In this document: in pieces, positions 9,434-32,408 of the stretch
How the letters are laid out: the number at the start of each line of letters is the position of its first letter
How positions within the stretch are numbered: the first letter of the stretch is position 1
Virus record (IMG/VR): IMGVR_UViG_2778261394_000008
Span: 1-39,391 of that record
Reading direction: 5' to 3' (one strand)
Source: a virus
Taxonomy: Duplodnaviria; Heunggongvirae; Uroviricota; Caudoviricetes
Length of the DNA stretch: 39,391 nt
The notes under the pieces: generated by a model
What the model was told of the DNA's origin: nothing
Databases searched by the model: none
The model's input: the letters and a program-made list of their open reading frames with translations, nothing else
Made by a program: the position numbers and the translations under genes

Positions 9434-10087
9434 GCACAATATATTGATTCTGCAATTTCGGGACGTTACACTGTTCCAGCACCTTATAAAGCGGGTGCCG
9501 GGCGTGGAAACCCGAAATTCAATATAGAGCACAACCGCGCTCATGCGGTTTTTTCGTGTCATGAGCATTGCTACGCCCAAATTATGGTGGGGCGTGCAGG
9601 GCCAACTTCGGTTGGGCCGGGTTCTATGTTGACCGGTATTTCCACCCCTGTACGTCTCACCACCTATATGGTCGTGGAAAGCCTTGGTGGTGAGTTCTTT
9701 GAATTCAACATAGGGGCTGTCACCATGACTACCACCACTACCCACCCATTCCTCAAAATTGAGATTATTAACGGTAAGACCGTTATTTTCTCTTTGCATG
9801 TAGCCTGCCATTTCAAGCGCATGCACCAGAACATCGTCGACAAAATCGAGTATCTGAACTGCTCACGCGAGTTTTTTACCCGCAATTTCATACCGGGTAC
9901 TTATCACATCTATGGTGACTCCCTGCGTGGTTATTACATCACCCTTGATGGCCTGATGATGCTTCAGCTTGGGTTAAGTCTGCGCACAATGCGGTACTAC
10001 GAGAGCTGCATTGAAGCATTCCATGAAACTGAAGCCAGTCTCAGTCACACCGCTTTCCGCCGTAATCAATGGGAGGTGCGCCCATGA
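9422..10087 (+). CDS. Hypothetical protein (221 aa; start uncertain)
   Basis: 3' portion of the 507-aa track ORF that does not overlap the antisense TA genes; codon usage looks coding; stop overlaps the start of the next ORF (ATGA at 10084-10087) with GGGAGGTG SD. Confidence 0.4.
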   Translation: MVMFAQYIDSAISGRYTVPAPYKAGAGRGNPKFNIEHNRAHAVFSCHEHCYAQIMVGRAGPTSVGPGSMLTGISTPVRLTTYMVVESLGGEFFEFNIGAVTMTTTTTHPFLKIEIINGKTVIFSLHVACHFKRMHQNIVDKIEYLNCSREFFTRNFIPGTYHIYGDSLRGYYITLDGLMMLQLGLSLRTMRYYESCIEAFHETEASLSHTAFRRNQWEVRP

Positions 10088-13519: not shown

Positions 13520-13762
13520 ATGACTTTTACGCCTGAACAATTACGTAAACAGGCACAGGAAATGTTACGACAGGCGGAACAACTGGAAAAGACAGGCGTA
13601 ACAAAAGATGCCATTCGTAAGGATATGGTGCCAGCGCTCAGGGAACTGATGCAGGCGAAACACCGCGCACAAAAAGCAGTGGATGAGCTGGTGGATTGTG
13701 TGGCAGAGCTGGAAACCAAAGTTGGAAAGTTTGAAAAACTGGTGCAGGAGGTACTGCGCTGA
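13520..13762 (+). CDS. Hypothetical coiled-coil protein (80 aa)
   Basis: Charged helical ORF between the helicase gene and Q; alternative TTG start at 13505. Confidence 0.45.
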
Positions 13763-14145
13763 TGCGTGATATTCAGATGGTTCTTGAGCGTTGGGGAGCG
13801 TGGGCGGCTAATAATCATGAAGATGTGACCTGGTCGTCCGTTGCCGCCGGTTTTAAGGGATTAATTCCTTCAAAAGTAAGATCTCGTCCGCAATGCTGTG
13901 ACGATGACGCGATGATCATTTGTGGATGTATGGCCTGTCTGAAAAAGAGCAACAATGGCTTACATGATTTGCTGGTGGATTATTATGTTGGTGGGATGAC
14001 GTTTATGATGCTGGCGCGGAAGCATAATTGCTCTGATGGGTATATCGGGAAAAGGTTACAGAAAGCAGAGGGAATAATCGAAGGTATGTTAATGGCATTA
14101 GACATTTGCTTAGAGATGGATATTGATGTTACTAAGCTTAATTAA
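13762..14145 (+). CDS. Late-gene antiterminator Q (small Q family as in DLP12-type prophages, recalled similarity)
   Basis: 127 aa, Cys-rich ([15 protein letters not shown]); positioned after the replication genes and before the late region. Confidence 0.7.
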
Positions 14146-14325: not shown

Positions 14326-15432
14326 TTAGAACTGGTATACCATACCTACAGCAACGATATCGTCAGTGTTTACACCAAGAGCTTTAGTAAAGTCATTTTT
14401 GTCAAGCAGGTTGATTTTGTAATCAACGAAGGTAGACATATTTTTGTTGAAATAATAAGTTGCGCCAACATCAACATATTTGACTAAATCCTGGTCACCA
14501 AAAATGCCAAGATCTTTACCTTTTGATTGCAGATAAGCAACAGACGGACGCAGACCGAAATCGAACTGATATTGTGCAACAGCTTCGAAGTTTTGTGCTT
14601 TATTAGCCACAAAGTAATCTGCGAATTTAGTCATATTCTGGGTTTCTGAATAGGTTGTTGCCAGATAAACGTTGTTTGCGTCGTATTTCAGACCTGCAGC
14701 CCAGACTTCTGCATTTTCGCCGGAAGCAAATACTCCTGGGAGAAGTTTACCCAATTTGACTTGAGTGTCGGTACGATCAGATTTCGCATACGTTGCACCA
14801 ATGCCGAAACCTTCGTATTCATAGGTCGCAGAGAAACCAAAACCATCGCCATTGCCTTTGGTGTAGTTATCTAAGCTACTACGATCATGATTATTCTTAC
14901 CCTGGTACTGTGCAGCAAAATTCAGACCATCAACCAGACCAAAGAAGTCGTTGTTACGATAAGTTGCAACACCAGTGGTGCGACCAGTCATGAATACATC
15001 TGTTTGGGTCCAGGTATCTCCACCGAATTCTGGCAGAACGTCAGTCCATGCACCGATATCGTATGCTACACCGTAGTTACGACCGTAATCGACGGAGCCG
15101 TAGTCACCGAATTTAAGCCCTGCAAATGCAAGACGGGTTTTATCTTTGGCTGCTCCCTGTTCTTCAGTACGGTTTCCTTTGAATTCATATTCCCACTGAC
15201 CGAAACCAGTCAGTTGATCGTTGATCTGAGTTTCGCCTTTGAAACCCAGACGAGCATAAGTTGTGTCGCCATCATTTGCATCGTTAGAGGAGAAGTAGTG
15301 CTTAGCATTAACTTTTCCGTACAGATCCAACTTGTTGCTGTCTTTATTATAAATCTCTGCTGCCTGAGCAGACATCGCCATCAGTACTGATGCAGCCACA
15401 GCAGAAATTGCCACCGTTAATTTTTTCATCAC
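14326..15432 (-). CDS. nmpC: OmpC/OmpF-family general porin (NmpC/Lc-type prophage porin)
   Basis: 368 aa; signal peptide ending [10 protein letters not shown]; porin signatures throughout and C-terminal aromatic residue (VYQF); encoded antisense to the late operon between Q and the lysis genes. Confidence 0.9.
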
Positions 15433-16286: not shown

Positions 16287-17333
16287 ATGGCTAATACTGT
16301 AAAAATATCCAGTTGTGAGTTAATCAACGCTGATTGCCTGGAATTTATCCGGACCTTACCGGAAAACTCTGTCGATCTGATAGTCACAGACCCGCCATAC
16401 TTTAAAGTGAAGCCCGAGGGCTGGGATAACCAGTGGAAGGGGGACGATGATTACCTGAAATGGCTGGCTCAGTGTCTGGCGCAGTTCTGGCGGGTACTGA
16501 AACCTGCCGGAAGTCTCTACCTGTTCTGTGGTCATCGCCTGGCATCTGATATCGAAATCATGATGCGTGAACGCTTTAATGTGCTGAACCACATTATCTG
16601 GGCGAAGCCGTCCGGACGCTGGAATGGGTGCAACAAGGAAAGCCTGCGGGCGTATTTCCCGGCAACAGAGCGCATTTTGTTTGCCGAACATTATCAGGGG
16701 CCATACCAGCCCAAAAGTGACGGTTATGCAGCAAAGGGGCGCGAGCTTAAGCAGCATGTCATGGCCCCGCTGATTTCTTACTTTCGTGATGCGCGCGAAT
16801 CACTGGGGATAACGTCAAAACAGATAGCAGAAGCCACCGGAAAGAAAAACATGGCTTCGCACTGGTTTGGTACCAGTCAGTGGCAGTTACCGAATGAGGC
16901 CGATTACAGTAAACTGCAGGCGCTGTTTGCACGTGTGGTGGCAGAAAAACACCAGCGCGGTGAACTGGAGCAGCCACACCACCAGCTGGTCAGCACATAC
17001 AGCGAACTGAACCGGCAATATGCCAGCCTGCTGGAGGAATACAAATCACTGCGGCGTTATTTTTCCGTATCGGCTGTCGTTCCTTATACGGATGTCTGGA
17101 CGCACAAGCCCGTGCAGTTTTATCCGGGTAAGCATCCCTGTGAAAAACCGGCGGATATGTTGCGTCAGATAATTACTGCCAGCAGCCGTCCAGGCGATTT
17201 GGTCGCAGATTTTTTTATGGGGTCGGGGTCGACAATAAAAGCGGCACTGTCGCTGGGATGCAGGGCGATTGGCGTGGAACTGGAAGAGGAACGTTTTAAT
17301 CAGACGGTCAGAGAAATAACGAAAGATTTTTAA
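16287..17333 (+). CDS. DNA methyltransferase, beta-class amino-MTase (N6-adenine or N4-cytosine), orphan
   Basis: 348 aa; motif IV DPPY near the N-terminus (IVTDPPYF) and motif I FxGxG near the C-terminus (FFMGSGST); no adjacent restriction endonuclease gene. Confidence 0.85.
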   Translation: MANTVKISSCELINADCLEFIRTLPENSVDLIVTDPPYFKVKPEGWDNQWKGDDDYLKWLAQCLAQFWRVLKPAGSLYLFCGHRLASDIEIMMRERFNVLNHIIWAKPSGRWNGCNKESLRAYFPATERILFAEHYQGPYQPKSDGYAAKGRELKQHVMAPLISYFRDARESLGITSKQIAEATGKKNMASHWFGTSQWQLPNEADYSKLQALFARVVAEKHQRGELEQPHHQLVSTYSELNRQYASLLEEYKSLRRYFSVSAVVPYTDVWTHKPVQFYPGKHPCEKPADMLRQIITASSRPGDLVADFFMGSGSTIKAALSLGCRAIGVELEEERFNQTVREITKDF

Positions 17334-17441
17334 TTCAGTGATGATATAAGTTGTATATTTCTGATACAGATGTATACACATATTTAAAACTGAACACCAA
17401 ATATATTTTTGATGCCCACACAATCATTGTTAGTATTTGTG

Positions 17442-17468
17442 ACGACCTAAAGGTGGTCGTTTTGTGTT
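17442..17468 (+). terminator. Hairpin with interrupted U-tract downstream of the methyltransferase
   Basis: Stem acgacc/ggtcgt, 6-nt loop, followed by tttgtgtt. Confidence 0.4.
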
Positions 17469-17890
17469 CACAGGGTGTTAATACCACCGGAAAGGTCAGT
17501 GCTGACTTCCTGGTGATCAGTTTGTTGATTCAGTAATAACCGGTCAGCAGTGTGATTCCGGAAGTCAGCATTTTATGTGTGAGGGTAATTTCTGCTACCC
17601 GCACTGGTAAACAAATGAGGCATATCGTTTCAGCACTGGCGAGTTTCGCGGAGAACAGGTTTTGCAAGCGCCTTTGTCGTTCTTCATTCTGTAATATCTG
17701 ACTGATTACAGTTTCGGTGCTGTTTTTTACATTGTTAACGTTGTGTATCATCGGATGGTTTTTATCAGAATGAGTCGCTGCCTGTTTCGGGGTCTGTGAT
17801 TCGTCAGAATTACGTTGCAGGCTGACGAATCATTCTGGTAGTAACCATACAATTAAACGCTGTCTAATTCTTATACGATGAATGCTTTGG

Positions 17891-17917
17891 GCCCGTCTCA
17901 TGACGGGCATTTTTTTA
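17891..17917 (+). terminator. Rho-independent terminator
   Basis: gcccgtc-tcat-gacgggc followed by attttttta. Confidence 0.7.
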
Positions 17918-18013
17918 TCCGTGCGCAATGCCTGTTCTGTTATGGCATTTTTCATCTTTTCCCGGTTGGCTATTATTATGGTTTATTTTTCTGTATACAG
18001 GAGAATTGAGACT

Positions 18014-18505
18014 GTGATCACATATGCAGACATTCGGGAAAAGCAGGCTGAAATTCAGGAGGCCAGACAGGAGTACATCCAGCGACTGCGGGATATGGCA
18101 AAAAGGCTGGTCAAGACCTATGAAGACTCACTGGCATTGCCGAAACCACGATGGCTGGATATTGACGGTAACTCCCATCCCTATGTTTATCTTTCTCATG
18201 ATAGTTGTTGTGAGAAACCGGAGGATTTGCAGGTAGATTTTCAGGATGGGGTTACTTTTAATTTATATACGGTTGTTGATGATGATCCCCGCCAGTCTGT
18301 AAGTGTGAATATTACAGTGAGTATTCTGTTACTTGATGGCGACAACATGACGATTTCGGTTGATGGTTATCAGGCCAGGACATTTTCGCATGTGGATACC
18401 AACGCAAAAATTAATGAAGTGTGCGAATACATTAAAGACAGCATACTTATGTCAATGAATGAAGTGACGTTTGGCAAAAAATCCCTTTCAGAAGTGAAAG
18501 GGTAA
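18014..18505 (+). CDS. Hypothetical protein (163 aa), moron-like unit
   Basis: GTG at 18014 preceded by AGGAGA SD (9-nt spacing); the longer track ORF from 17882 would include the terminator hairpin; bracketed by intrinsic terminators. Confidence 0.45.
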   Translation: MITYADIREKQAEIQEARQEYIQRLRDMAKRLVKTYEDSLALPKPRWLDIDGNSHPYVYLSHDSCCEKPEDLQVDFQDGVTFNLYTVVDDDPRQSVSVNITVSILLLDGDNMTISVDGYQARTFSHVDTNAKINEVCEYIKDSILMSMNEVTFGKKSLSEVKG

Positions 18506-18540
18506 ACCAGCTGACACTCCGCTGATTCAGAAAATTATCA

Positions 18541-18565
18541 GGCTGCGCACGTGCGTGGCCTTTTT
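18541..18565 (+). terminator. Rho-independent terminator
   Basis: Stem ggctgcgc/gtgcgtggcc with 4-nt loop, followed by ttttt. Confidence 0.5.
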
Positions 18566-18702
18566 CATATCTGCGCCACGCCCGGCGCACATCAAAAAAC
18601 CACAGAGCCTTTCAGGGGGGAGCTTACGGGATGGTCAGTGTGACTTTCTCTGTGGGCTGCTCATCCCGGGGCGAGGCTCACCCACTAAAAGGAAAAGTCA
18701 CG

Positions 18703-19128
18703 ATGTTTGGTATTTTCAAAAAGAAAACCCGTAAGGCTATTACTGAAGTGAAGAAAATGGAGAACCGCGACGCGGTGGAGGCGACCGTCTGGGGCGCGTA
18801 TTCCATTGCATACGCTGACGACACCTGTGACGCGAAAGAAATTGCGGTACTGGAGAAAACCATTGCAGCACTTCCTGCCTTTGCGCCGTTCTCCGGTGAG
18901 ATTGCCCAGATGAGCGCGAATATCCGCGCCCGTTATGAAGCATCGCCTCGTAGTGCGAATGCTCAGGCTTTGCGAGAACTGGCTGATGTGGCAGGAACCG
19001 CCGAAGCGGTTGATGTGCTGTGCCTGTGTCTGGATATTGCAGACCAGGATGGCATTGGTCCGGATGAAGAAGCACAGCTCAAGAAAATTGCGCAGGCGCT
19101 GCAGTTGCCGCTGGAGCAGTACCTGTGA
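18703..19128 (+). CDS. TerB-like (tellurite-resistance TerB family) protein
   Basis: 141 aa from ATG at 18703 (AGGAAA SD); overall pattern resembles TerB, with two acidic D..D/E segments (AYADDTCDAKE and DIADQDGIGPDEEAQ); assignment from recollection. Confidence 0.55.
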   Translation: MFGIFKKKTRKAITEVKKMENRDAVEATVWGAYSIAYADDTCDAKEIAVLEKTIAALPAFAPFSGEIAQMSANIRARYEASPRSANAQALRELADVAGTAEAVDVLCLCLDIADQDGIGPDEEAQLKKIAQALQLPLEQYL

Positions 19129-19277
19129 AAAGTGCGCGCCTTGTGCTGGCTGCCATCCTGCTGTTTCTGGTAGTGGCAGTGGATTTTACCGGACGGCTGA
19201 TGTCGGTGCTGGCTGATGGCGTGCTGGTGGCGATGGTGATGGTCGTTCTCTGGCCTTTACTGCACAAATATGAATAA
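19125..19277 (+). CDS. Small hydrophobic membrane peptide (50 aa)
   Basis: GTG start overlapping the TerB-like stop (GTGA); almost entirely hydrophobic (LVLAAILLFLVVAVDF...VLVAMVMVVLWPLL). Confidence 0.4.
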   Translation: MKSARLVLAAILLFLVVAVDFTGRLMSVLADGVLVAMVMVVLWPLLHKYE

Positions 19278-19325
19278 CACCAAACAAAAGGCATCTGCGG
19301 GTACCTTTGACAGGGTGTTTTTTAC

Positions 19326-19349
19326 GGGCCGCTGGTGGCCCTTTTTATT
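19326..19349 (+). terminator. Short GC hairpin plus U-tract immediately upstream of the holin gene
   Basis: gggcc-gctggt-ggccc followed by tttttatt. Confidence 0.4.
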
Positions 19350-19364
19350 GACAGGAGAAAAAGT

Positions 19365-19754
19365 ATGTCTGAACCCTTATCCGGTTCCGGCACGGCTGCG
19401 GCGCTCGGTGGGGCGACGGTATTCGGGCTGTTTACCGGAACGGATTTCGGGATTGTGTTTGGTGCATTCGCAGGGGCGCTGTTTGTGGCCACGATACCAC
19501 AGAAGATTTCTGTCTGGCGTGTGGCAGCGCATTTTCTGGTGTCGTTCATTGTTGGCGTGCTGGGGGCGGATGTGATGGCGTCTTACCTGGTTGAAAAACT
19601 GAATCTCCACAGCACATCTCTCGACGCGCTTTGCGCGGTACTGGTATCGGTGGTGTCGGTGAAGATTCTCTCATTCATCCACCAGCAGGATATCGCATCG
19701 CTGGTATCCGGGCTGTTCTCCCGTCTGCGGGGTGGAGGCGGTAATGTTAAGTAA
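19365..19754 (+). CDS. Holin-like membrane protein (lysis cassette gene 1)
   Basis: 129 aa from ATG at 19365 (AGGAGA SD); multiple predicted TM segments; directly upstream of the endolysin. Confidence 0.6.
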   Translation: MSEPLSGSGTAAALGGATVFGLFTGTDFGIVFGAFAGALFVATIPQKISVWRVAAHFLVSFIVGVLGADVMASYLVEKLNLHSTSLDALCAVLVSVVSVKILSFIHQQDIASLVSGLFSRLRGGGGNVK

Positions 19755-20022
19755 CCTTCCCGGATTACTGAATGTGGTGTTAAGCACGGTTATCGTGCTG
19801 ACGCTCTTTTTTTATCGTCGTGGTGAGTCGAGACATAAACCGCTGATGTCGTGGCTGGCCTGGCTGCTGATGCTGCTTTATGCCTTTGCGCCGCTTTGTT
19901 ATCTGTGTGGTCGCTTTCCACCCGGTAACTGGCTGGTCGTCCTGATTAACCTGGTGTTCTGCGTGCTGGTGATACGAGCACGCGGGAACGTATCAAAAAT
20001 CCTTGTATTACGAAGGCGCTGA
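19744..20022 (+). CDS. Second holin/antiholin-like membrane protein
   Basis: 92 aa from ATG at 19744 (GGAGG SD); hydrophobic with a basic C-terminus. Confidence 0.5.
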   Translation: MLSNLPGLLNVVLSTVIVLTLFFYRRGESRHKPLMSWLAWLLMLLYAFAPLCYLCGRFPPGNWLVVLINLVFCVLVIRARGNVSKILVLRRR

Positions 20023-20023
20023 T

Positions 20024-20569
20024 ATGAAGTCGAAAGATGAAATTTTTGACGAAATTCTGGGAAAAGAGGGCGGTTACGTCAATCACCCGGATGATAAAGG
20101 TGGTCCGACTAAATGGGGCATCACTGAAAAAGTTGCCCGTGCACACGGTTATCAGGGCGATATGCGTGACCTGACGCGTGGGCAGGCGCTGGAAATACTC
20201 GAGGCGGACTACTGGTACGGACCACGATTCGACCAGGTTGAGGACCTGTCTCCTGATATTGCCGCAGAGTTGTGCGATACGGGCGTGAACATGGGGCCAA
20301 CTGTGGCGTCCAGAATGCTTCAGCGCTGGCTGAACGTTTTCAACCTGCGCGGGAAACTCTATCCGGATATGGATGCAGATGGACGCATCGGGCCGCGTAC
20401 TCTTAATGCATTACGGGCATATCTGAAAAATCGCAGCAGGGATGGTGAACTGGTACTGGTGAAAGCCCTGAACTGTACGCAGGGCGAGCGTTATCTGGAG
20501 CTGGCAGAGAAACGCGAGGCCAATGAGTCGTTTGTCTATGGCTGGATGAAAGAGCGCGTGGTGGTTTAA
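20024..20569 (+). CDS. Endolysin, glycoside hydrolase family 108 with C-terminal peptidoglycan-binding domain
   Basis: 181 aa; N-terminal GH108 signature (EGGYVNHPDDKGGPTKWGIT). Confidence 0.85.
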   Translation: MKSKDEIFDEILGKEGGYVNHPDDKGGPTKWGITEKVARAHGYQGDMRDLTRGQALEILEADYWYGPRFDQVEDLSPDIAAELCDTGVNMGPTVASRMLQRWLNVFNLRGKLYPDMDADGRIGPRTLNALRAYLKNRSRDGELVLVKALNCTQGERYLELAEKREANESFVYGWMKERVVV

Positions 20570-22521: not shown

Positions 22522-23070
22522 ATGAAGGTTAATAAAAAGAAGCTCGCGGAAATTTTCAACGTGGATCCACGAACGATTGAACGCTGGCAGTCTCAGGGGC
22601 TCTCTTGTGTCTCTGGTGGTAGTAAGGGGGTTGAATCTGTATTTGATACCGCCATGGCAATTCAGTGGTATGCGCAGCGCGAAGCCGATATTGAAAACGA
22701 AAAACTCCGCAAAGAGACCGAGGATTTGCGTGCGGCTGCGGAATCAGATTTACAACCCGGCACCATTGACTATGAGCGCTACCGACTCACAAAAGCACAG
22801 GCTGATGCACAGGAACTGAAAAATGCCCGCGAAGAAGGGCTGGTACTGGAAACGGAATTGTTTACCTTCATTCTGCAACGTGTGGCACAGGAGATTTCGG
22901 GGATACTTGTACGTGTGCCGCTGACATTACAGCGTAAATATCCGGATATTTCACCGTCACACCTTGATGTGGTGAAAACTGAAATCGCAAAAGCCTCCAA
23001 CGTTGCAGCTAAAGCTGGTGAGAACGTAGGCGGGTGGATTGATGATTTCAGACGCACAGAAGGCAGCTAA
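22522..23070 (+). CDS. Nu1: Terminase small subunit (lambda Nu1-like)
   Basis: 182 aa starting [12 protein letters not shown]; recalled strong similarity to lambda gpNu1 including the N-terminal winged HTH. Confidence 0.9.
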
Positions 23071-24958
23071 TGCAGCCGGTGCGATAGCAACAGGGCTTGT
23101 ATCTCTCAATATTCCGGTACCACTGACGACAGTTCAGTGGGCTGATCAGCATTATTATCTGCCAAAAGAGTCTTCATATACTCCCGGGCAATGGGAAACA
23201 CTGCCGTTTCAGGTTGCCATCATGAACAGCATGGGGAATGACCGGATCCGCACCGTTAATCTGATTAAATCGGCGCGTGTTGGTTACACCAAAATGCTGT
23301 TGGGGGTGGAGGCTTATTTTATTGAACACAAATCCCGTAACAGCCTGCTTTTTCAGCCGACAGATTCTGCGGCAGAAGATTTTATGAAATCCCATGTCGA
23401 ACCAACGATAAGAGACGTTCCTGTATTACTGGAGCTGGCTCCGTGGTTTGGCAGAAAACATCGGGACAACACGCTTACCCTGAAACGTTTCTCCTCCGGT
23501 GTGGGATTCTGGTGTCTGGGCGGAGCTGCTGCCAAAAACTACCGTGAAAAATCTGTGGATGTGGTCTGCTATGACGAACTCTCCTCGTTTGAACCGGATG
23601 TGGAAAAAGAAGGTTCACCAACTCTGCTTGGTGATAAGCGTATCGAAGGTTCGGTATGGCCTAAATCCATACGCGGCTCAACGCCCAAAATTAAAGGTTT
23701 TTGCCAGATTGAAAAAGCCGCGAACGAATCTGCACATTTTATGCGGTTTTATGTGCCATGCCCTCATTGTGGTGAAGCCCAGTATCTGAAGTTTGGCGAT
23801 GATGCGACAACCTTTGGCCTGAAATGGGAGAAGGGCAAGCCGGAGACGGTGTATTACCTGTGTGAACATAATGGCTGCGTGATCCGTCAGTCGGAACTTG
23901 ACCATACCGACGGGCGGTGGATTTGTGACAATACCGGGATGTGGACGCGTGACGGTCTGACATTTTACAGCGCCGGTGATGAGGAAATCCCGCCACCGCG
24001 CTCAATCTCGTACCACATCTGGACGGCATACAGCCCGTTCACCACCTGGGTACAGATTGTTTATGACTGGCTTGATGCACTGAAGGATCCGAATGGCGTC
24101 AAGACGTTCATTAACACCACGCTGGGGGAGCCTTATGAAGAGGCTGTGGCAGAAAAACTGAGCTTTGAGTTGTTGCTGGAAAAAGTCTGCCACTATGATG
24201 CGCAGGTTCCCCTGCGGGTGGTTTACCTGACCGCAGGGATCGACTCACAGAAAAACCGTTATGAGATTTATGTCTGGGGCTGGGCTCCCGGCGAAGAAGC
24301 TTTTCTGATTGACAAGCAGATCATCATGGGGAGACCGGAAGATGAGGACACCCTTAAACGCGTTGATGCCGTGATCCGGAAAAAATACCGTCATGCAGAT
24401 GGCACTGAAATTTCCATTTCCCGCGTCTGCTGGGATACCGGTGGTATTGACCAGGACATTGTGTATCAGCGTTCCAGAAAACACGGCACTTTTTTTGTGC
24501 TCCCCATCAAAGGGGCATCGGTGTACGGCAAGCCGGTGATCACCATGCCAAAAAAGCGAAACCAGCGTGGGGTGTTTTTGTGTGAGGTGGGTTCCGATAC
24601 CGTCAAGGAAATGCTGTATGCGCGTTTTGCCCTGCCGGTGGTATCTGCCAGTGAAGCCGCACCGTATACCTTCCGTTTTCCGGATAACCCTGACATTTTT
24701 TCTGATGTTGAAGCTAAACAACTCGTGGCAGAAGAGCTGGTTGAAAAAGTTGTGAACGGGCGGGTGAAACTCCAGTGGGATGCCAGAAAACGGCGTAATG
24801 AAGCTCTGGACTGTCTGGTGTATGCCTATGCAGCGCTGCGCATTTCCGTTCAGCGGTGGCAACTGGATCTGGATGTACTGGCCCGCGCCAGAAGAGATGA
24901 ACAGGACGACGATGAAATGACTATTGAAGAAATCGCGGCTGCTCTGAGTGGAGGATAA
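23042..24958 (+). CDS. A: Terminase large subunit (lambda A-like)
   Basis: About 638 aa; high similarity to lambda gpA along the whole length (e.g. [36 protein letters not shown]). Confidence 0.95.
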
Positions 24959-24961
24959 GTG

Positions 24962-25171
24962 ATGATTTATACGCATGAAATGCTATGCGATGCCCGCCGG
25001 GCGTTACATGAACTGATGATCGGACGTGCTGTGGTTTCCGTCAGCAAGGACGGGCGTCAGGTTCAGTATTCGCGGGCGACAATTGGTGAACTGCGTCAGT
25101 ATATTGAAGAGCTGGAAAGTGCGCTGGGTGTATCCGGACGGCGTCGTGGTCCGGCAGGAGTGGGGCTGTGA
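24962..25171 (+). CDS. W: Head-tail joining protein W
   Basis: 69 aa; GGAGGA SD; similar to lambda gpW (ARRALHELM, RRRGPAG). Confidence 0.85.
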   Translation: MIYTHEMLCDARRALHELMIGRAVVSVSKDGRQVQYSRATIGELRQYIEELESALGVSGRRRGPAGVGL

Positions 25172-26739
25172 ACGGGGAACTGGTGGATATTCATGGGCAG
25201 CCTTTACGGCAAGGCATGGGATATTCTGGTGGTGGTTCCGGGGTCGGTGGGCAAATGGCAGAATGGCTGCCTGCACCGGAAAGTGCCGACGTGGCGCTCT
25301 TACCTTCCATTCATCTGGGTAACGCCCGCGCGGATGATCTGGTCCGTAACAACGGTATTGCATCGAATGCAGTGGAAATTCATAAGGATCATATTGTCGG
25401 GCACATGTTTCGTCTGAGTTACCGTCCCAACTGGCGCTGGCTGGGGATGTCGGAAGCAGATTCACATGCTTTTATTGAAGATGTTGAGGCGGCGTGGATG
25501 GAATACTGCGATCCGGTGTTTGGTACGATGGATGTGGAAGGGCGTCGTTCGTTTACCGAATTCATTCGTGAAGGGGTGGGGGTCCATACGTTTAACGGTG
25601 AAATTTTTGTCCAGCCCGTATGGGATGCGGAATCCACGTCATTATTCCGGACGAAATTCAAAACCATCAGCCCGAAGCGTGTCAGTACACCCGGTTATGG
25701 TACCGGCGATCGTTTTATGCGTGCCGGGGTGGAAATAAACCGACACGGAAAAGCGCTGGCCTACCATGTTCAGGATGATGACTGGCCCGGCTACGGTGTC
25801 AGTAAATGGACACGAATTACGGCAACACTGCCTTCCGGACGACCGGGAATGATCCATGTGTTTCAGCCACAGGAAGACGGGCAGACCCGCGGGGCCAACC
25901 AGTTTTATTCTGTAATGGAGCGTCTCAAGATGCTCGACACACTGCAGGCCACGCAACTGCAGTCGGCGGTGGTTCGCGCCATGTATGCCGCCACGATTGA
26001 ATCCACACTGGATTCGGAAAAAGCGTTTGAATATATCGCCGGGGTGGGAGATGGAGGTAAAAATCCCCTGAACACCATCATGAAAGGCTACGCGCGTTAT
26101 TACGCCACCAATACGGTAAAACTGGGCGGGGTCCGTATTCCGCATCTTTACCCGGGAGATTCACTGAATCTGCAGACAGCCCAGAATGCGGATAATGGTT
26201 TTTCTGAACTGGAAAAGGCGCTGTTACGTTACATTGCTGCCGGACTGGGTGTGTCGTATGAGCAGCTTTCCCGGGATTATTCACAGGTCAGTTATTCCAG
26301 TGCCAGGGCATCCGCCAATGAGTCGTGGCGGTATTTTATGGGAAAACGAAAATTTGTGGCCAGTCGCCTGGCGTCACAGATGTTTGCCTGCTGGCTGGAG
26401 GAAGCCCTTATTCGTGGTGTGATCCGTCCGCCGAAATCCCGTTTCTCATTCTGGGAGGCCCGTTCCGGGTGGTGCCGTGCCGAGTGGATTGGTGCCGGTC
26501 GTATGGCGATTGATGGTCTTAAGGAAGTGCAGGAAGCGGTGATGCGCATTGAAGGCGGCCTGAGTACATACGAGAAAGAGCTGGCCCTGATGGGGGATGA
26601 CTATCAGGAGATTTTCCGCCAGCAGCTACGGGAAACTCAGGAGCGACAGGCTGCCGGTCTTCCGCGTCCGGTCTGGATAAAGGACGCGTTTCAACAGCAG
26701 ATCCGACAGACAACGGGAGAAAAAGGCGATGCGCTGTAA
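25168..26739 (+). CDS. B: Portal protein (lambda B-like)
   Basis: 523 aa, GTG start overlapping the W stop; similarity to lambda gpB throughout. Confidence 0.93.
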   Translation: MNGELVDIHGQPLRQGMGYSGGGSGVGGQMAEWLPAPESADVALLPSIHLGNARADDLVRNNGIASNAVEIHKDHIVGHMFRLSYRPNWRWLGMSEADSHAFIEDVEAAWMEYCDPVFGTMDVEGRRSFTEFIREGVGVHTFNGEIFVQPVWDAESTSLFRTKFKTISPKRVSTPGYGTGDRFMRAGVEINRHGKALAYHVQDDDWPGYGVSKWTRITATLPSGRPGMIHVFQPQEDGQTRGANQFYSVMERLKMLDTLQATQLQSAVVRAMYAATIESTLDSEKAFEYIAGVGDGGKNPLNTIMKGYARYYATNTVKLGGVRIPHLYPGDSLNLQTAQNADNGFSELEKALLRYIAAGLGVSYEQLSRDYSQVSYSSARASANESWRYFMGKRKFVASRLASQMFACWLEEALIRGVIRPPKSRFSFWEARSGWCRAEWIGAGRMAIDGLKEVQEAVMRIEGGLSTYEKELALMGDDYQEIFRQQLRETQERQAAGLPRPVWIKDAFQQQIRQTTGEKGDAL

Positions 26740-28345
26740 TTTATCACATATTGCCGCGATGGCATTTAATGAGCCGCTTTTACTGGAACCCGCCTATGCG
26801 CGGGTTTTCTTTTGCGCACTGGGTAAGGAGATGGGGGCGGGCAGCCTTGCCGTTCCGCAGCAGGCCGTTCAGCTTGATGCCGATGGTATGCAGCTGGCGG
26901 TTACCGATTATATGACTGGTGGTCCGCGTCCGGTAAAGAGTTACCAGGTGAAAAATGGTATTGCCATTCTGCCGGTGAGCGGCACGCTGGTACATAAAAT
27001 GGGTACCCTGCGGCCATATTCCGGTATGACCGGTTATGACGGTCTGACTGCCCGTCTTAAGTCAGCGGTGAACGACCCGGATGTACGCGGCATTTTACTG
27101 GATATCGACAGTCCGGGCGGTCAGGCTGCCGGGGCGTTTGACTGTGCTGACATGATTTACCGTCTGCGGGAACAGAAGCCCGTGTGGGCGCTGTGTAATG
27201 ACATGGCCTGTTCAGCCGCCATGTTGCTGGCGGCGGCCTGTACGCGTCGGCTGGTCACGCAGACGGCAAAAATTGGTTCGATTGGTGTGATGATGGCGCA
27301 CACCAGTTACGAGAAACAACTGGCACAGGAAGGCGTGGATATCACGCTGATTTACTCCGGGCAGCACAAGGTTGACGGCAACAGTATTCAGGCGTTGCCG
27401 ACAGGTGTGCGTGCGGATTTTCAGCGCCGTATTGATGAGGCCCGCCGGATGTTTGTCGACAAGGTGGCACTTTATACGGGGCTGAGTTCAGAGGTGGTGA
27501 TGAATACCGAGGCTGCCGTTTATGACGGTCAGGCAGGCATTGATACAGGCCTGGCTGATCAACTGATTAATGCTGCAGATGCCGTTGATGTAATGGTTTC
27601 TGCTCTGAACGACTCTGTTACACAGGAGAATACGATGACAACAAAAAATCTCACCGTTGCTGAAGCGGTGTCCCAGGAAAATCAGCGCGTGATGGGGATC
27701 CTGAATTGTCAGGAGGCGAAAGGACGCGAAAAACTGGCGCAGATGCTGGCAGGTCAGCAGGGAATGTCAGTTGAGCAGGCAAAAACATTACTGGCGGCAG
27801 CACCGGTTGCCGGTACTGACAGCACAGGCGATCAGATTATGGCACTTCCGGAAGCAAAAGGGCGTGAACAACTGGCACGGACGCTGGCTGAACAGCCGGG
27901 AATGACGGTGGAGCAGGCGAAAACGTTACTGGCAGCGGCACCGGTTTCCGGTGCGGCAAGTACCGGCGAGCAGATTATGGCACTTTCGGAAGCAAAAGGG
28001 CGTGAACAACTCGCACAGGCGCTGGCTGAACAGCCGGGAATGACGGTGGAACAGGCGAAAATGCTACTGGTAGCGGCACCGGCAACCGGTACGGCAAGTA
28101 CCGGCGATCAGATTATTGCGTTGCCGGAAGCAAAAGGACGCGAACAACTGGCACAGGCGCTGGCTGAACAGCCGGGAATGACAGTGGAGCGGGCGAAAAC
28201 GCTGCTGGCAGCTGCGCCATCAGTATCGCAACCGTCACAGGTAACACTTTTTGAGCGCTTCATGGCACAGCATGCCGCCAGTGCCGTTTCCGGTGGCGGA
28301 ACTGCCGGGAACGGGGAAGAAGAACTGCTGATGAGTATGCCGTAA
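26729..28345 (+). CDS. C: Head maturation protease / minor capsid protein C (S49-like) with C-terminal scaffold region
   Basis: 538 aa; N-terminal half similar to lambda gpC (HIAAMAFNEPLLLEPAYARVFFCAL); C-terminal part contains tandem repeats. Confidence 0.9.
   Translation: MRCNLSHIAAMAFNEPLLLEPAYARVFFCALGKEMGAGSLAVPQQAVQLDADGMQLAVTDYMTGGPRPVKSYQVKNGIAILPVSGTLVHKMGTLRPYSGMTGYDGLTARLKSAVNDPDVRGILLDIDSPGGQAAGAFDCADMIYRLREQKPVWALCNDMACSAAMLLAAACTRRLVTQTAKIGSIGVMMAHTSYEKQLAQEGVDITLIYSGQHKVDGNSIQALPTGVRADFQRRIDEARRMFVDKVALYTGLSSEVVMNTEAAVYDGQAGIDTGLADQLINAADAVDVMVSALNDSVTQENTMTTKNLTVAEAVSQENQRVMGILNCQEAKGREKLAQMLAGQQGMSVEQAKTLLAAAPVAGTDSTGDQIMALPEAKGREQLARTLAEQPGMTVEQAKTLLAAAPVSGAASTGEQIMALSEAKGREQLAQALAEQPGMTVEQAKMLLVAAPATGTASTGDQIIALPEAKGREQLAQALAEQPGMTVERAKTLLAAAPSVSQPSQVTLFERFMAQHAASAVSGGGTAGNGEEELLMSMP
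27636..28345 (+). CDS. Nu3: Nested in-frame scaffold protein (Nu3-like) from an internal start within C
   Basis: Internal ATG at 27636 preceded by AGGAGA SD, in the same frame as C, as in the lambda C/Nu3 arrangement. Confidence 0.55.
27711..28230 (+). repeat. Tandem ~138-bp in-frame repeats (about 3.7 copies) within the C/Nu3 coding region
   Basis: Repeated peptide unit EAKGREQLAQALAEQPGMTVEQAKTLLAAAPxxGxxSTGDQIMAL, read directly from the sequence. Confidence 0.75.
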
Positions 28346-28385
28346 GCGGGGATCCGTGATTCAGATAAATCAGGAGACTGAGAAA

Positions 28386-28721
28386 ATGATTAAAACCACC
28401 ACAGAAAAGCGCGCGGACGGGCGCATTTTTGCCGGAAGCGATCCGGTGTATACCGCAACAGGTACCAGTGGTATCAGTGTTGCCACGCCTTCACTGACGC
28501 CACTGATGCTGGATGACGCCAGCGGAAAACTGGTGGCATGGGATGGTCAGAAAGCCGGAACGGCTGTGGGGGTGCTGGCACTGGCGCTGGCCGGGACCGA
28601 GCCCGTACTGACGTACTACAAAAGTGGTACGTTTGCCACCGAATCGCTGGTCTGGCCGGATTCGGTGGATGCGGTGAAAAAAGCCAACGCGTTTGTGGGA
28701 AGTGCCATCAGCCACGCCTGA
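28386..28721 (+). CDS. D: Head decoration protein D
   Basis: 111 aa; similar to lambda gpD (TPLMLD, KLVAWDG, YKSGTF). Confidence 0.9.
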   Translation: MIKTTTEKRADGRIFAGSDPVYTATGTSGISVATPSLTPLMLDDASGKLVAWDGQKAGTAVGVLALALAGTEPVLTYYKSGTFATESLVWPDSVDAVKKANAFVGSAISHA

Positions 28722-28743
28722 TGGTGAAGTGATTAACTGAAAA

Positions 28744-28775
28744 AACGGGTCGAGATACGGCCCGTTTGTGTTTTT
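28744..28775 (+). terminator. Hairpin plus T-rich tract between D and E (possible attenuator)
   Basis: Stem aacggg..cccgtt followed by tgtgttttt. Confidence 0.35.
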
Positions 28776-28790
28776 AAAGGAAAGTCAATT

Positions 28791-29819
28791 ATGGGGTTAT
28801 TTACCACGCGTCAGTTGCTCGGCTACACCGAGCAGAAAGTGAAATTCCGTGCGCTGTTTCTGGAGCTGTTTTTTCGTCGTACGGTCACTTTCCATACTCA
28901 GGAAGTGATGCTGGATAAAATCACCGGAAAAACACCGGTTGCGGCATATGTGTCTCCGGTTGTGTCAGGTAAGGTACTGCGCAGTCGTGGTGGTGAAACC
29001 CGCGTGTTACGCCCCGGCTATGTTAAACCAAAACACCGGCTGGATTATCAGCAGGCGGTGGAGCGTCTTCCGGGGGAAGATCCGGCCCGTCTTAATGACC
29101 CGGCCTACCGTCGCCTGCGTATTCTGACTGACAACCTGAAACAGGAAGAACAGGCGATTGTGCAGGTGGAAGAAATGCAGGCGGTCAGCGCTGTTCTGCA
29201 GGGTAAGTACACCATGAGCGGTGAACAGTTTGAGACGGTGGAAGTGGATTTTGGACGTTCTGCCGCCAATAACATTACGCAGGCAGGGGGACGCGAATGG
29301 TCAAAACAGAATGCTGACACCTTTGATCCGACGCATGATCTGGATGCGTACTGCGATTTTGCTTCCGGTACCATCAATATTGCGATTATGGACGGTACTG
29401 TCTGGCGTATGCTGAACGGTTTTAAACTGTTTCGTGAAAAACTGGATACCCGCCGTGGCTCAAAATCTGAACTGGAAACCGCGCTGAAAGATCTGGGGTC
29501 CGTGGTTTCTTTTAAAGGTTATTACGGTGATCTGGCCATCATGGTGGCGAAAACAACGTATGTTGATGAAAACGGGGATGAGCAGCGTTATCTGCCGGAA
29601 GGCACACTGATTCTTGGAAACACTCAGGTGGAGGGTGTCCGTTGTTATGGCGCAATCCAGGATAACCAGGCGCTGAGTGAAGGGATCACCTCTGCAATTC
29701 GTTATCCGAAACACTGGTTAGAGGTGGGGGACCCGGGGTGCGAATATACCATGACGCAGTCTGCGCCGTTGATGGTGTTGCCGGATCCGGACGCGTTTGT
29801 GGTGGTTCAGGTGAAATAA
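28791..29819 (+). CDS. E: Major capsid protein E
   Basis: 342 aa; strong similarity to lambda gpE. Confidence 0.95.
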   Translation: MGLFTTRQLLGYTEQKVKFRALFLELFFRRTVTFHTQEVMLDKITGKTPVAAYVSPVVSGKVLRSRGGETRVLRPGYVKPKHRLDYQQAVERLPGEDPARLNDPAYRRLRILTDNLKQEEQAIVQVEEMQAVSAVLQGKYTMSGEQFETVEVDFGRSAANNITQAGGREWSKQNADTFDPTHDLDAYCDFASGTINIAIMDGTVWRMLNGFKLFREKLDTRRGSKSELETALKDLGSVVSFKGYYGDLAIMVAKTTYVDENGDEQRYLPEGTLILGNTQVEGVRCYGAIQDNQALSEGITSAIRYPKHWLEVGDPGCEYTMTQSAPLMVLPDPDAFVVVQVK

Positions 29820-29824
29820 GGTCA

Positions 29825-29850
29825 GGCGGGATATTCCCGCCTTTTTCTTT
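29825..29850 (+). terminator. Rho-independent terminator-like hairpin after E
   Basis: ggcggga-tat-tcccgcc followed by tttttcttt. Confidence 0.55.
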
Positions 29851-29869
29851 ATCGCACAGGAGAGATGTG

Positions 29870-30250
29870 ATGACAAAAGAAGAAATAACAGCGCGTCTTC
29901 AGGAGCTGGCGGCAGTACTCGGGCGCGATGCCGATATTTCAGGCTCTAAAGCTGATCTTGAACAACGCCTGGCGGAGTGGGAAGAAGAATTAAGTGATGG
30001 TTCAGACGGCCTGTATAAGGATGATGAAGAACCACAACAAAAAAACGAAACACGATCCGAACGTGGGGAGAGTGAGAACCGAAATTCTGTGGATATGGTC
30101 ATGGTCAAAGCTGTGGTGATGTTACATGTCAATGCACTCCACGCCACACGGGATAACCCCGTGGCATTTGTACGTCCGGGAGAAGTGTTTCGTGTATCTG
30201 CCGTGGTGGCAGCCAGCATGGCAGAAAGTGGCCTCGTGAAAATGTGTTGA
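29870..30250 (+). CDS. FI: DNA packaging/head protein FI
   Basis: 126 aa from internal ATG (AGGAGAG SD); similar to lambda gpFI (MTKEEITARL, HVNALHATRDNPVAFV). Confidence 0.85.
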   Translation: MTKEEITARLQELAAVLGRDADISGSKADLEQRLAEWEEELSDGSDGLYKDDEEPQQKNETRSERGESENRNSVDMVMVKAVVMLHVNALHATRDNPVAFVRPGEVFRVSAVVAASMAESGLVKMC

Positions 30251-30263
30251 ATGTGGGGGAAAG

Positions 30264-30638
30264 GTGGCAGATTTCGATAATCCGTTTGATGCCGCCGTCG
30301 CCATGGCTGACGAGGTCATTCTTTGTCATATGGGGATTACGGCGGTAATTACGTCCGGTCAGCTTGAAGGAAAAACACTCAGGGGTGTTTTTGATGATCC
30401 TGAAAAAATTTCGTTCGTTGCCGGAGGAGTACGGTTTGAAGATTCTTCACCGTCTTTGTTTGTGAAAACAGCAGATATTACGGGACTGCGCCGTCTGGAT
30501 ACGCTGGAGGTTGGTGGGGATCTTTTTCGGGTGGATCGCATTACTCCGGACGACGGGGGATGCTGTTATATCCGCCTGCAACGGTGTGACAGTTCCCGGG
30601 GTGATATCAGTACGGGGCGATATTATGAAAGGTCTTGA
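30264..30638 (+). CDS. FII: Head-tail connector protein FII
   Basis: 124 aa, GTG start; N-terminus MADFDNPFDAA as in lambda gpFII. Confidence 0.85.
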   Translation: MADFDNPFDAAVAMADEVILCHMGITAVITSGQLEGKTLRGVFDDPEKISFVAGGVRFEDSSPSLFVKTADITGLRRLDTLEVGGDLFRVDRITPDDGGCCYIRLQRCDSSRGDISTGRYYERS

Positions 30639-31203
30639 AAACGCCATCCGTAATCTGGACATCCTTGATACCCGTATGGTGCCACAGGCCAGCGCCTGGG
30701 CAATAAATCGTGTGGCACAGAAAGCCATTTCTCAGGCTACCCGACAGGTTGCCCGCGATACCGTAGCCGGTGATAACCAGGTGAAGGGGATCCCCCTGAA
30801 ACTGGTACGTCAGCGTGTCCGGGTGTTTAAAGCCAGTCCGTCAGGAAAAATGACGGCCAGGATCCGCGTTAACCGGGGCAATCTGCCCGCCATTAAGCTG
30901 GGGGCTGCACAGGTCAGAATGACCCGGCGTGGTGGCAGGTTACATTACCGTGGCAGTGTGCTGAAAGTGGGAAAATATCTTTTCCGGAATGCCTTTGTCC
31001 AGCAACTGGCGAACGGTCGCTGGCATGTGATGCGGCGTATTGACGGCAAAAATCGTTACCCCATTGATGTGGTGAAAATTCCGCTGTCCGGTCCGCTGAC
31101 ACAGGCATTTGAGGATGCCCGTAAAAGCGTCATTGATAACGAGATGCCGAAACAGCTGGGGTATGCCCTGAAACAACAACTGAGGTCATATCTGAACCTA
31201 TGA
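30625..31203 (+). CDS. Z: Tail completion protein Z
   Basis: 192 aa from ATG at 30625 (MKGLENAIRNL); overlaps FII 3' end; similar to lambda gpZ. Confidence 0.85.
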   Translation: MKGLENAIRNLDILDTRMVPQASAWAINRVAQKAISQATRQVARDTVAGDNQVKGIPLKLVRQRVRVFKASPSGKMTARIRVNRGNLPAIKLGAAQVRMTRRGGRLHYRGSVLKVGKYLFRNAFVQQLANGRWHVMRRIDGKNRYPIDVVKIPLSGPLTQAFEDARKSVIDNEMPKQLGYALKQQLRSYLNL

Positions 31204-31601
31204 ACCGACACACACAAATTCGTCAGGCCGTATTGTCGCGCCTGAAAACGACGTGCGGGGAGAAGACCGTCCTGTTTGACGGCCTTCCTGCCTTTATTGA
31301 TGCGCAGGAGCTGCCTGCTGTGGCGGTGTGGCTGAGTGATGCACAGTACACCGGAAAAATGACGGATGAGGATGACTGGCTGGCAGTTCTGCATGTCGCC
31401 GTCTTTATCCGTGCACAGGCACCGGATTCTGATCTGGATACGTGGATGGACAACATTATTTACCCGGCACTGGAGGATATTCCGGCGCTTTACGGCCTTA
31501 TCGATACCATGATCCCACGGGGATTTAACTATCAGCGTGATAACGATATGGCAACATGGGCGATGGCGGAAATCACGTATCAAATCACATATACAAATTA
31601 A
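31200..31601 (+). CDS. U: Tail terminator protein U
   Basis: 133 aa; ATGA overlap with the Z stop; similar to lambda gpU. Confidence 0.9.
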   Translation: MNRHTQIRQAVLSRLKTTCGEKTVLFDGLPAFIDAQELPAVAVWLSDAQYTGKMTDEDDWLAVLHVAVFIRAQAPDSDLDTWMDNIIYPALEDIPALYGLIDTMIPRGFNYQRDNDMATWAMAEITYQITYTN

Positions 31602-31611
31602 GGGGTGGGAA

Positions 31612-32352
31612 ATGACGACACCGAATCCACTTGAAAAAATGAAAGGGGCGGGGACGACGTTCTGGATGTATACCGGCAAGGGCGACGCATTTGCGAATCC
31701 TTTGTCAGATACGGACTGGCTGCGCCTCGCGATGGTGAAGGATCTGCAGCCGGGGGAAATGACTGCAGATGCGGAAGATGACGATTATCTCGATGATGAA
31801 AATGCTGACTGGAAAACGACAACTCAGGGGCAAAAATCTGTTGGTGATACATCCGCGACGCTGGCCTGGCGTCCGGGTGACAGCGGACAGAAAAAACTGA
31901 TTCAGTTGTTTGATTCCGGTGAAGTTCGTGCATTCCGCATTAAATACCCTAACGGTACCGTTGATGTGTTCCGCGGCTGGCTGAGTTCGCTGGGTAAAAC
32001 CATTACGTCAAAAGATGTGATGACCCGTACGGTTAAAATCAGCGGTGTGGGGCGTCCGTATCTGGCTGAGGAGGGGACTGAAATTGTGGGGGTGACCGGG
32101 CTGACAGTAATGCCGGTTTCCGCCAGTGTCAGAGTGGGGGCAACGACGACGCTGACATTTAGCACAGTACCGGAAGATGCATCTGATAAAACGGTGAGTG
32201 TGGCGTCATCATCTCCTGATATCGCCACGGTTACGCTGAGTGGCATGGTGGCCACGGTGAAAGGTGTGAAAGCGGGCAGCACCTCGATTGTGGGGATGAC
32301 TGCGGGTGGTGCGCAGGTTGCTGTGGCCGGTATTACCGTTAATGGTGATTAA
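31612..32352 (+). CDS. V: Major tail protein V (with C-terminal Ig-like domain)
   Basis: 246 aa from ATG at 31612; similar to lambda gpV (KGAGTTFWMY, FRGWLSS). Confidence 0.95.
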   Translation: MTTPNPLEKMKGAGTTFWMYTGKGDAFANPLSDTDWLRLAMVKDLQPGEMTADAEDDDYLDDENADWKTTTQGQKSVGDTSATLAWRPGDSGQKKLIQLFDSGEVRAFRIKYPNGTVDVFRGWLSSLGKTITSKDVMTRTVKISGVGRPYLAEEGTEIVGVTGLTVMPVSASVRVGATTTLTFSTVPEDASDKTVSVASSSPDIATVTLSGMVATVKGVKAGSTSIVGMTAGGAQVAVAGITVNGD

Positions 32353-32370
32353 CCTGGCAGTCTGTTTTTT

Positions 32371-32393: not shown

Positions 32394-32408
32394 GTTTACG
32401 GAGGGGAC

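Follow-up and report, generated by a model that had tools for sequence, protein, structure and literature searches.

The tciAB gene pair of lambdoid prophages: a TerB-family protein and a hydrophobic peptide carried in a dispensable cargo cassette

Phage P1 carries three consecutive genes named tciA, tciB and tciC (annotation of Lobocka et al. 2004; NC_005856 70233-70929), the first two overlapping by stop and start codon. In P1 and P1-like plasmids tciAB lies between upl and ban, in the ban operon and away from the lysis genes lydA/lydB/lyz, and according to the P1 annotation it is transcribed from the C1-controlled ban promoters; transcripts of tciA, tciB and tciC are seen 10-20 min post infection (bioRxiv 10.64898/2025.12.28.696737). 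The genes behave as dispensable cargo: all three were non-essential in a genome-wide CRISPRi screen, in which their knock-down left plaque formation unimpaired (PMC10695390), and tciABC has been lost in about half of one P1-like phage-plasmid subgroup (PMC9603915). The literature that we searched holds no experiment on any TciA or TciB, and the names come from homology alone.

TerB domains turn up often in stress, defence and phage settings. In the terZABCDEF operons TerB is a small acidic protein, reported at the inner membrane and encoded beside a membrane protein, the multi-pass TerC; a TerC-TerB complex has been described as a central unit, according to work cited in PMC12054061. DjlA has on one chain a transmembrane helix followed by a TerB-like domain (PMC11709261), and also a J domain; the helix, a short hydrophobic element, keeps the TerB-like domain on the cytoplasmic side of the inner membrane. 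For the TerB domains of the anti-phage systems Bunzi and Shango, a role in membrane surveillance has been proposed (bioRxiv 10.1101/2022.05.11.491447).

The DNA analysed here is a stretch of 39,391 nucleotides (the window), taken from IMG/VR virus record IMGVR_UViG_2778261394_000008 and matching the E. coli EC11 chromosome (NZ_CP027255) at 100% identity, where it forms a lambdoid prophage adjoining potB. A preliminary description, made from the letters alone, had singled out in it a TerB-like protein gene coupled to the gene of a hydrophobic peptide. On the + strand an ATG at 18703, with AAAGGAAAAGTCACG before it, opens a gene (18703-19128, TGA at 19126-19128) for a cytoplasmic TerB-family protein of 141 aa, and a GTG at 19125 opens a gene (19125-19277) for a hydrophobic DUF3927 peptide of 50 aa. 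The four bases GTGA (19125-19128) are common to the 3' end of the first gene and the 5' end of the second. Within the final codons of the first gene, 8 nt before the GTG, is a Shine-Dalgarno sequence GGAG (19113-19116, + strand), and GGA(G/C/T) is kept at this position across related loci. The proposed two-ORF layout, with its GTG start and GTGA overlap, is thus borne out by reading the sequence. RefSeq also starts the first gene at 18703, and names the two products in EC11 'tellurite resistance TerB family protein' and 'DUF3927 family protein' (WP_064765589). An in-frame ATG further upstream, at 18631, was considered as the true start and rejected, the extension being unconserved in related loci.

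The pair is already known and annotated, tciA and tciB having first been named in P1. P1 tciA matches the window at 84% nucleotide identity (megablast), and its product is 87% identical over all 141 residues; P1 tciB is likewise the next, overlapping gene, followed by tciC, and its product belongs to the same DUF3927/PHROG 1470 family at ~50% amino acid identity. We regard it as nearly certain that the pair in the window is tciAB, that is, a TerB-fold protein together with a membrane peptide. The preliminary description was right about both kinds of product, and overlooked the known P1 pair and the annotation in the same genome. Gene order, start-stop overlap and dispensability are common to P1 and the window, but the overlap reads GTGA in the window and TGATG in P1, and the window has, instead of tciC, a spacer of 88 nt with a terminator after tciB. 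A tblastn search with P1 TciC matched only the P1 record itself and one P1-type locus.

TciA passes the gathering cut-off of the Pfam TerB family PF05099, with 28.6 bits against 24.4 (E 1.9e-6, in two matched stretches), PF05099 is precomputed on nearly all of its homologues, and TciA matches PHROG 632 end to end (E 2e-64). In an AF2 model built from 26 homologues (pLDDT 86.6, pTM 0.81), residues 1-12 are disordered and six helices follow, giving the all-helical TerB-like fold. The closest structural matches of this model are the TerB-like entries 2h5n and 2ou3, with modest scores that are consistent with the Pfam result; we take both entries to belong to the TerB-like structural superfamily. 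On these three lines the assignment of the first protein to TerB holds. A sequence search of the PDB with TciA gave a chance match only, and NCBIfam gave no meaningful match.

Charge is unevenly distributed along TciA. The disordered N-terminus, MFGIFKKKTRK, is basic, with 7 K/R among the first 20 residues, and the six-helix body is acidic, the remainder of the protein having 20 D/E to 9 K/R. Two acidic stretches are conserved, A-D-D-T-C-D-A-K-E (38-46), which reads D-G-T-C-D in most homologues, and A-D-Q-D-G-I-G-P-D-E-E (113-123). Anantharaman and colleagues (2012) are said to have recognized in TerB two acidic motifs of the D-G-x-x-D/E type, thought to be metal-chelating.

Judged by its sequence, TciA is a distinct TerB subfamily. 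A tblastn search of 72,556 plasmids at E 1e-3 found TciA on 680, almost all at 80-90% identity and mostly on non-mobilizable phage-plasmids of E. coli and Klebsiella, and did not reach canonical ter-operon TerB; a profile search for distant relatives, of which the best 120 of 439 matches were taken, did not widen the diversity. TciA and the TerB of terZABCDEF have the Pfam family and the all-helical fold in common, and both are small, acidic and encoded beside a membrane protein, but the Pfam score of TciA is just above the cut-off, BLAST-level similarity is lacking, and the membrane partner is the 50-aa TciB in place of a multi-pass TerC. The RefSeq product name would make the pair a genuine tellurite-resistance determinant, and TciA does sit in the TerB family. 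We hold this to be highly improbable: none of terZ, terA, terC, terD, terE and terF is annotated or found in the 39-kb window, canonical plasmid TerB is beyond the reach of the search just described, and the minimal resistance unit published is TerC-TerD with TerZ or TerA (cited in PMC12054061).

TciB passes the Pfam family DUF3927 with 58.4 bits against a cut-off of 25 and matches PHROG 1470, 'TciB-like', at E 7.7e-25, so the second product is, as had been supposed, a real and conserved hydrophobic peptide. Its GRAVY value is +1.5 and 70% of its residues are A/I/L/M/F/V/W/C; either end carries basic residues, and in mid-peptide there is a polar stretch, D-F-T-G-R. The invariant positions are R5, D20-F21-T22, D31 (usually D-G) and P44. 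The AF2 model (pLDDT 93.5) is one continuous helix of 47 residues, 2-48, with no hairpin; in the membrane the peptide may either span it a single time or turn back on itself around D-F-T-G-R. The DUF3927 family is small, comprising only 97 clusters (50% identity) at E 1e-3 among 1.84 billion representatives, nearly all of them of 40-90 aa.

To compare the locus with its relatives we used TciA to collect 17 loci, taking one genome per species, and TciB to collect 80 from viral contigs. A TciA sequence lies directly 5' of TciB in all 80 viral loci (as a truncated remnant in 9), and TciB is present in each of the 15 TciA genome loci that reach far enough downstream; the adjacency extends to six loci of a divergent branch in which TciA is only 43% identical. 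The two genes overlap in all ~100 loci, by GTGA in 86, TAATG or TGATG in 12, ATGA in one and TTGA in one. Three sequence solutions to one overlap argue that the coupling itself is selected, and since the overlap is kept in every related locus examined, translational coupling of tciB to tciA, as first proposed from the window alone, is very likely. The gene tciA has a median dN/dS of 0.055 (64 distinct DNA versions) and tciB one of 0.29 (63 distinct versions), at a median dS of ~1.1, and the tciB ORF is open and overlaps tciA in its 63 distinct versions. These values indicate that both genes are protein-coding and constrained, and the maintained ORF, together with the two Pfam matches, sets the pair apart from chance. 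In the TerB-linked loci sampled the two genes are therefore always adjacent and overlapping, and both are under purifying selection. Four apparent natural TciA-TciB fusions, considered as evidence of interaction, were set aside as frameshifted or chimeric gene calls.

As had been described, terminators flank the pair, in the form of two terminator-like hairpins; each is followed by a T run. The first, T1 (18540-18566, + strand), has a stem at 18540-18561 of 9 bp (6 G-C) with a 4-nt loop, followed by TTTTTCATATC; it closes the preceding hypothetical gene, and related loci have a terminator at the same place with a different stem sequence. The second, T2 (19326-19346, + strand), has a stem at 19326-19341 of 6 bp (5 G-C), followed by TTTTTATTGA, and ends 19 nt before the start codon of the holin gene. 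It is retained before the holin in two loci that lack tciAB (L187 and phage phiP27), which makes it part of the holin upstream region and not of the cassette. Terminator-like sites are frequent here, with 12 in the region 17300-20100 against 2.5 +/- 1.6 in shuffled sequences. The pair can fairly be described as moron-like cargo flanked by two terminators. A classical moron has by definition its own promoter, whereas a promoter scan found no sigma-70-like site between T1 and the tciA ATG. The nearest candidate is a 9/12 match at 18511-18538, overlapping T1, weak and within chance expectation; it leaves room for expression of tciAB in the lysogen.

The simplest reading, taken over from the established model of lambdoid late operons, is that tciAB is transcribed by Q-antiterminated late transcription passing through T1 and T2. 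Since the pair lacks a convincing promoter of its own and stands behind a terminator, most of its transcription would come in lytic growth, from RNA polymerase that Q has modified to pass T1.

Genes related to tciB are also found without TerB. In prophage PP2 of EPEC E2348/69 a DUF3927 ORF of 52 codons, with a TTG start and no Shine-Dalgarno sequence, follows an unrelated 247-aa gene and lies 41 nt upstream of the PasD2 sRNA, and this arrangement of 247-aa hypothetical gene, DUF3927 and PasD recurs 3122 times across 690 of the 5426 complete E. coli genomes. In prophage PP5 of the same strain, DUF3927 is reduced to a remnant of 28 codons. In the nine viral loci with a truncated tciA that gene is cut down to codons 73-141, by a deletion between copies of ATATCCGCGCC, a repeat of 11 nt shared by the leader and tciA; tciB is left whole. 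Such loci, with the TerB-less ORFs, indicate that tciB can outlive tciA, whether in a role of its own or as a relic.

These orphans bear on a second explanation of the pair, as a toxin and antidote or an abortive-infection system of the lysogen, in which TciB would be a membrane-depolarising peptide, either restrained or set off by TciA, and other phages would be excluded. A small hydrophobic peptide coupled to a soluble partner does resemble membrane-toxin pairs, and, like other prophage cargo, the cassette has flanking terminators and varies in its presence. Validated defence systems contain TerB domains, which are their proposed membrane surveyors (bioRxiv 10.1101/2022.05.11.491447), and ter operons are credited with phage inhibition and colicin resistance in work cited in PMC9603915 and PMC12054061. 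We nevertheless consider this explanation unlikely. Intact DUF3927 ORFs persist in thousands of TerB-less copies and beside truncated tciA, a state that an expressed, toxic TciB would make difficult to sustain; an own promoter was not found in the scan; and an order of putative antidote first and toxin second under strict coupling suits co-assembly better than differential control. Membership in a known defence system finds no support either: PADLOC-DB 2.0, a library that covers many such systems, had no family matching TciA or TciB at E <= 1. An exclusion or stress function, as raised in the preliminary description, is conceivable. Bunzi and Shango have the TerB domain in common with tciAB, but the cassette has no helicase, ATPase or other effector gene.

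Along the prophage, Q (window 13762-14145) is followed by an ompC-like porin gene on the opposite strand, a small hypothetical gene, a DNA methyltransferase gene, a gene for a 207-aa hypothetical protein, tciAB, the lysis genes, and the head and tail genes. Here tciAB fills the cargo slot that lambdoid phages have between Q, the regulator of late genes, and the lysis cassette, a late position that differs from the C1-controlled ban operon of P1. Phage phiP27 has the same flanks (small hypothetical gene, methyltransferase and tRNAs on one side, two holins and an endolysin on the other), but there stxA2e-stxB2e fill the tciAB slot, and the 3' part of tciB remains beside the holin. At locus L187 tciAB has been cleanly deleted, so that the leader runs straight into the end of tciB. 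Of 5426 complete E. coli genomes, 720 (~13%) have a match to the region, and in 155 the match covers 80% or more of the region. The tciAB pair is a dispensable cargo cassette that is often lost or swapped.

Downstream of tciB the first gene (19365-19754) encodes a holin of the Pfam family Phage_holin_8 (E 3.7e-22), followed by holin_3_7 and a GH108 endolysin. The preliminary description tied the pair to lysis timing. In such a scheme TciB would be antiholin-like or otherwise holin-modulating and TciA its cytoplasmic regulator, and together they would set the moment at which the adjacent holins fire. The pair lies 88 nt upstream of the holin gene in the same direction of transcription, the same adjacency is seen in most lambdoid-type loci, and TciB is a small membrane peptide of holin-like size. 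The holins, however, change while the pair stays: tciAB precedes Phage_holin_8 + holin_3_7 cassettes of 46-100% identity and also, sometimes with intervening genes, cassettes of the unrelated P21 S type (PF04971). At some loci 0.5-1.3 kb of other genes separate tciAB from the holin, in a few genomes the pair lies among early or recombination genes, and in P1 it stands far from the lysis genes. TciB has no holin or lysis family match in Pfam or PHROGs, where it finds only DUF3927 and PHROG 1470; T2 stands between pair and holin; the closely related L187 and phiP27 do without the pair; and the P1 knock-downs plaque normally (PMC10695390). We conclude that the link between tciAB and the holin is positional, and that a part in lysis timing is quite improbable.

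A factor of host takeover, which would block cell division or reprogram the host early in lytic growth, is suggested by the 'inhibition of cell division' sense of tci. PHROGs places both families (632 and 1470) in the category 'moron, auxiliary metabolic gene and host takeover'; in P1 the C1-repressed ban operon that contains the pair also has a dicF-like region and tRNAs; and a P1vir transcriptome study groups them with icd and kilA as division-control genes (bioRxiv 10.64898/2025.12.28.696737). The analogy behind that assignment is to complete ter operons and not to TerB on its own, the assignment goes back to the name only, and the lambdoid phages carry the pair in a late, not an early, transcription unit. 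We give this explanation as little credence as the one from lysis timing.

Between T1 and the tciA ATG lies a non-coding leader of 136 nt (18567-18702, + strand), which is absent from P1. Across the lambdoid-type loci it is 76-96% identical in nucleotide sequence, even where TciA is only 43% identical. In a scan of viral contigs with an 18-mer of the leader, 120 loci were found, and in 106 of the 117 with enough downstream DNA TciA follows, 104-112 nt downstream; the exceptions have the 5' half of the leader only, or a tciAB deletion. In one exception (L219) a full leader precedes the gene of a periplasmic-binding-like protein and another small hydrophobic ORF.

The RNAalifold consensus of the leader has a small hairpin, GCGCC/GGCGC, and a predicted helix in which CCUUU (18610-18614) pairs with the tciA Shine-Dalgarno sequence AAAGG (18690-18694) and GGGGGAGC (about 18617-18625) pairs with GGCUCACCC (18677-18685); as a long-range helix the consensus sets GGGGUGAGCC opposite GGCUCACCC. 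Scored on 16 diverse sequences, the structure has 97% of its cells paired. Compensatory change is found at three of its pairs, one with UA (7) and AU (5) as alternatives, and its G-U pairs fit the + strand alone. The sequences preserve a competing local helix, CCACAGAG/CUCUGUGG, just as well but without variation, and the folding of the window's own leader is not unusually stable (z = -1.7). Rfam has no family for the leader: 18480-18760 gave only chance-level matches (E >= 0.2), and the matches at gathering score in the window, C4 and isrK, lie elsewhere. These predictions are suggestive only, and on them the leader is a candidate element for translational control of the cargo slot.

Two other identities for the leader were considered and dropped. 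It is not the end of an IS110-family element, ISEc20 being merely inserted into the leader in PPompW phages. Nor is it one of the PasA, PasC or PasD sRNAs, whose published probe and seed sequences mismatch the window (bioRxiv 10.64898/2026.05.13.724894; PMC8550237); PasA and PasC, moreover, lie on the opposite strand beside a different holin type, and the G-U pairs of the leader favour the + strand.

Our preferred reading takes tciAB as a cargo cassette expressed and deployed in steps. After Q-dependent read-through of T1, pairing of the leader with the tciA ribosome-binding site would limit or gate translation. Ribosomes ending tciA would re-initiate at the overlapping GTG, so that TciB would be made in step with TciA. 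The peptide would insert in the inner membrane and, with the basic N-terminus of TciA, hold the acidic TerB domain at the cytoplasmic face. The tether is inferred from known systems, and the outcome would be a minimal two-gene version of a membrane-tethered TerB, as in TerB-TerC and DjlA; TciB would be the counterpart of the hydrophobic element of DjlA, although TciA, unlike DjlA, has neither a transmembrane segment nor a J domain. Once tethered, the module would modulate the membrane or ion state of the infected cell and thereby its tolerance of membrane-damaging agents, for example pore-forming colicins or a superinfecting phage; it would not be a dedicated holin partner. As an overall explanation, the cargo cassette with this stepwise mechanism seems to us about evenly balanced between right and wrong. 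The physiological role within it, a membrane-tethered TerB module that adjusts membrane or ion state in lytic growth, is put forward more tentatively, as a possibility on the doubtful side.

A bolder form of the proposal, which we think unlikely, makes tciAB a minimal, self-contained machine of TerB protein and membrane peptide whose synthesis is gated by a structured 5' leader RNA. If true, its deployment by temperate phages in lytic growth would maintain the energised state of the inner membrane up to programmed lysis, or serve until then as a sensor of ion or membrane damage; the leader, hitherto undescribed, would hide the ribosome-binding site and open to a signal, for example temperature, a metal ion or a small RNA; and the pair would be the simplest tractable system for the function of TerB domains.

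The cassette itself was already annotated, and what the present analysis mainly contributes is a correction of the proposed tie to lysis and a record of the conserved leader. Given the strong conservation of tciA, its spread and its place in a slot that can also hold Shiga-toxin genes, this two-gene TerB unit may serve as a convenient model for what TerB does.

The leader, by which we mean the non-coding stretch at 18567-18702 that precedes the TerB-family gene tciA, is more highly conserved than tciA downstream of it, retaining 76-96% nucleotide identity even at loci where the TciA protein is only 43% identical. Its predicted secondary structure includes a long-range helix in which the Shine-Dalgarno sequence is one of the partners, and no Rfam family was found to match it. 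At loci without tciA, the 5′ half of the leader is still kept. One viral contig found by the leader pattern (L219) has the complete leader, including the Shine-Dalgarno region, but carries different cargo downstream. Here the gene for a periplasmic-binding-like protein of 281 aa (Pfam NMT1_3) comes first, and a hydrophobic ORF of 59 codons comes next, overlapping it. A group of PPompW and Stx2a phages has ISEc20, an element of the IS110 family, inserted within the conserved leader, directly 3′ of the late regulator gene Q and three tRNA genes, as at 3501-5002 of PPompW_132418 (L223).

Within TciA (18703-19125), three cysteines, C42, C107 and C109 (in the contexts D-G-T-C-D and L-C-L-C), are invariant across the main branch of the family; the divergent 43% branch lacks the L-C-L-C pair. 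The cysteines may form a metal or redox site. Near-identical copies of the E. coli-type tciAB cassette are also filed under unlikely hosts, namely PP818812, named ‘Actinobacillus phage vB_Apl-pPE4’ (L002), and contigs of a Bacillota MAG, Pseudomonas lundensis, Acinetobacter idrijaensis and Kocuria sabuli (L005, L009, L020 and L021); these are likely to reflect contamination or mis-assigned hosts.

The second gene, tciB, encoding a DUF3927 peptide, can occur without an intact partner. At nine loci (L045-L052 and L057; e.g. L045 3780-3800) tciB is intact and tciA is recurrently shortened to codons 73-141. An 11-nt repeat, ATATCCGCGCC, has one copy in the leader and one in tciA, and the shortened gene originated by deletion between these copies. 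Orphan DUF3927 ORFs, with no TerB gene, lie directly 5′ of the PasD2 sRNA, as in E2348/69 (NC_011601, 740958-741116), where a further prophage carries a DUF3927 remnant of 28 codons (L222, 2533-2619). Among 5426 complete E. coli genomes, 690 contain this layout, at 3122 places in all.

Elsewhere in this lambdoid prophage, Rfam identifies isrK (61.6 bits) adjoining C4 antisense RNA (82.4 bits) on the + strand at 9479-9667, together an antisense immunity module of the P1/P7 type. Between Q and the late genes, in opposite orientation (14326-15432, − strand), lies an ompC-like porin gene, which resembles nmpC of prophage DLP12. Many structural genes at ∼23040-39391 (L003 24543-40901), among them those for the terminase large subunit, portal, major capsid, tape measure, tail proteins and J, are marked as frameshifted at RefSeq, reflecting either prophage decay or indel errors in assembly.

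In phage phiP27 (NC_003356, 17502-19113), precisely the slot that contains tciAB in the window (18703-19364) is filled by the Shiga toxin 2e operon. The flanks are common to both, with methyltransferase/tRNA on one side and holin on the other, and phiP27 retains the 3′ part of tciB. Therefore tciAB and stx are alternative cargo of one site.
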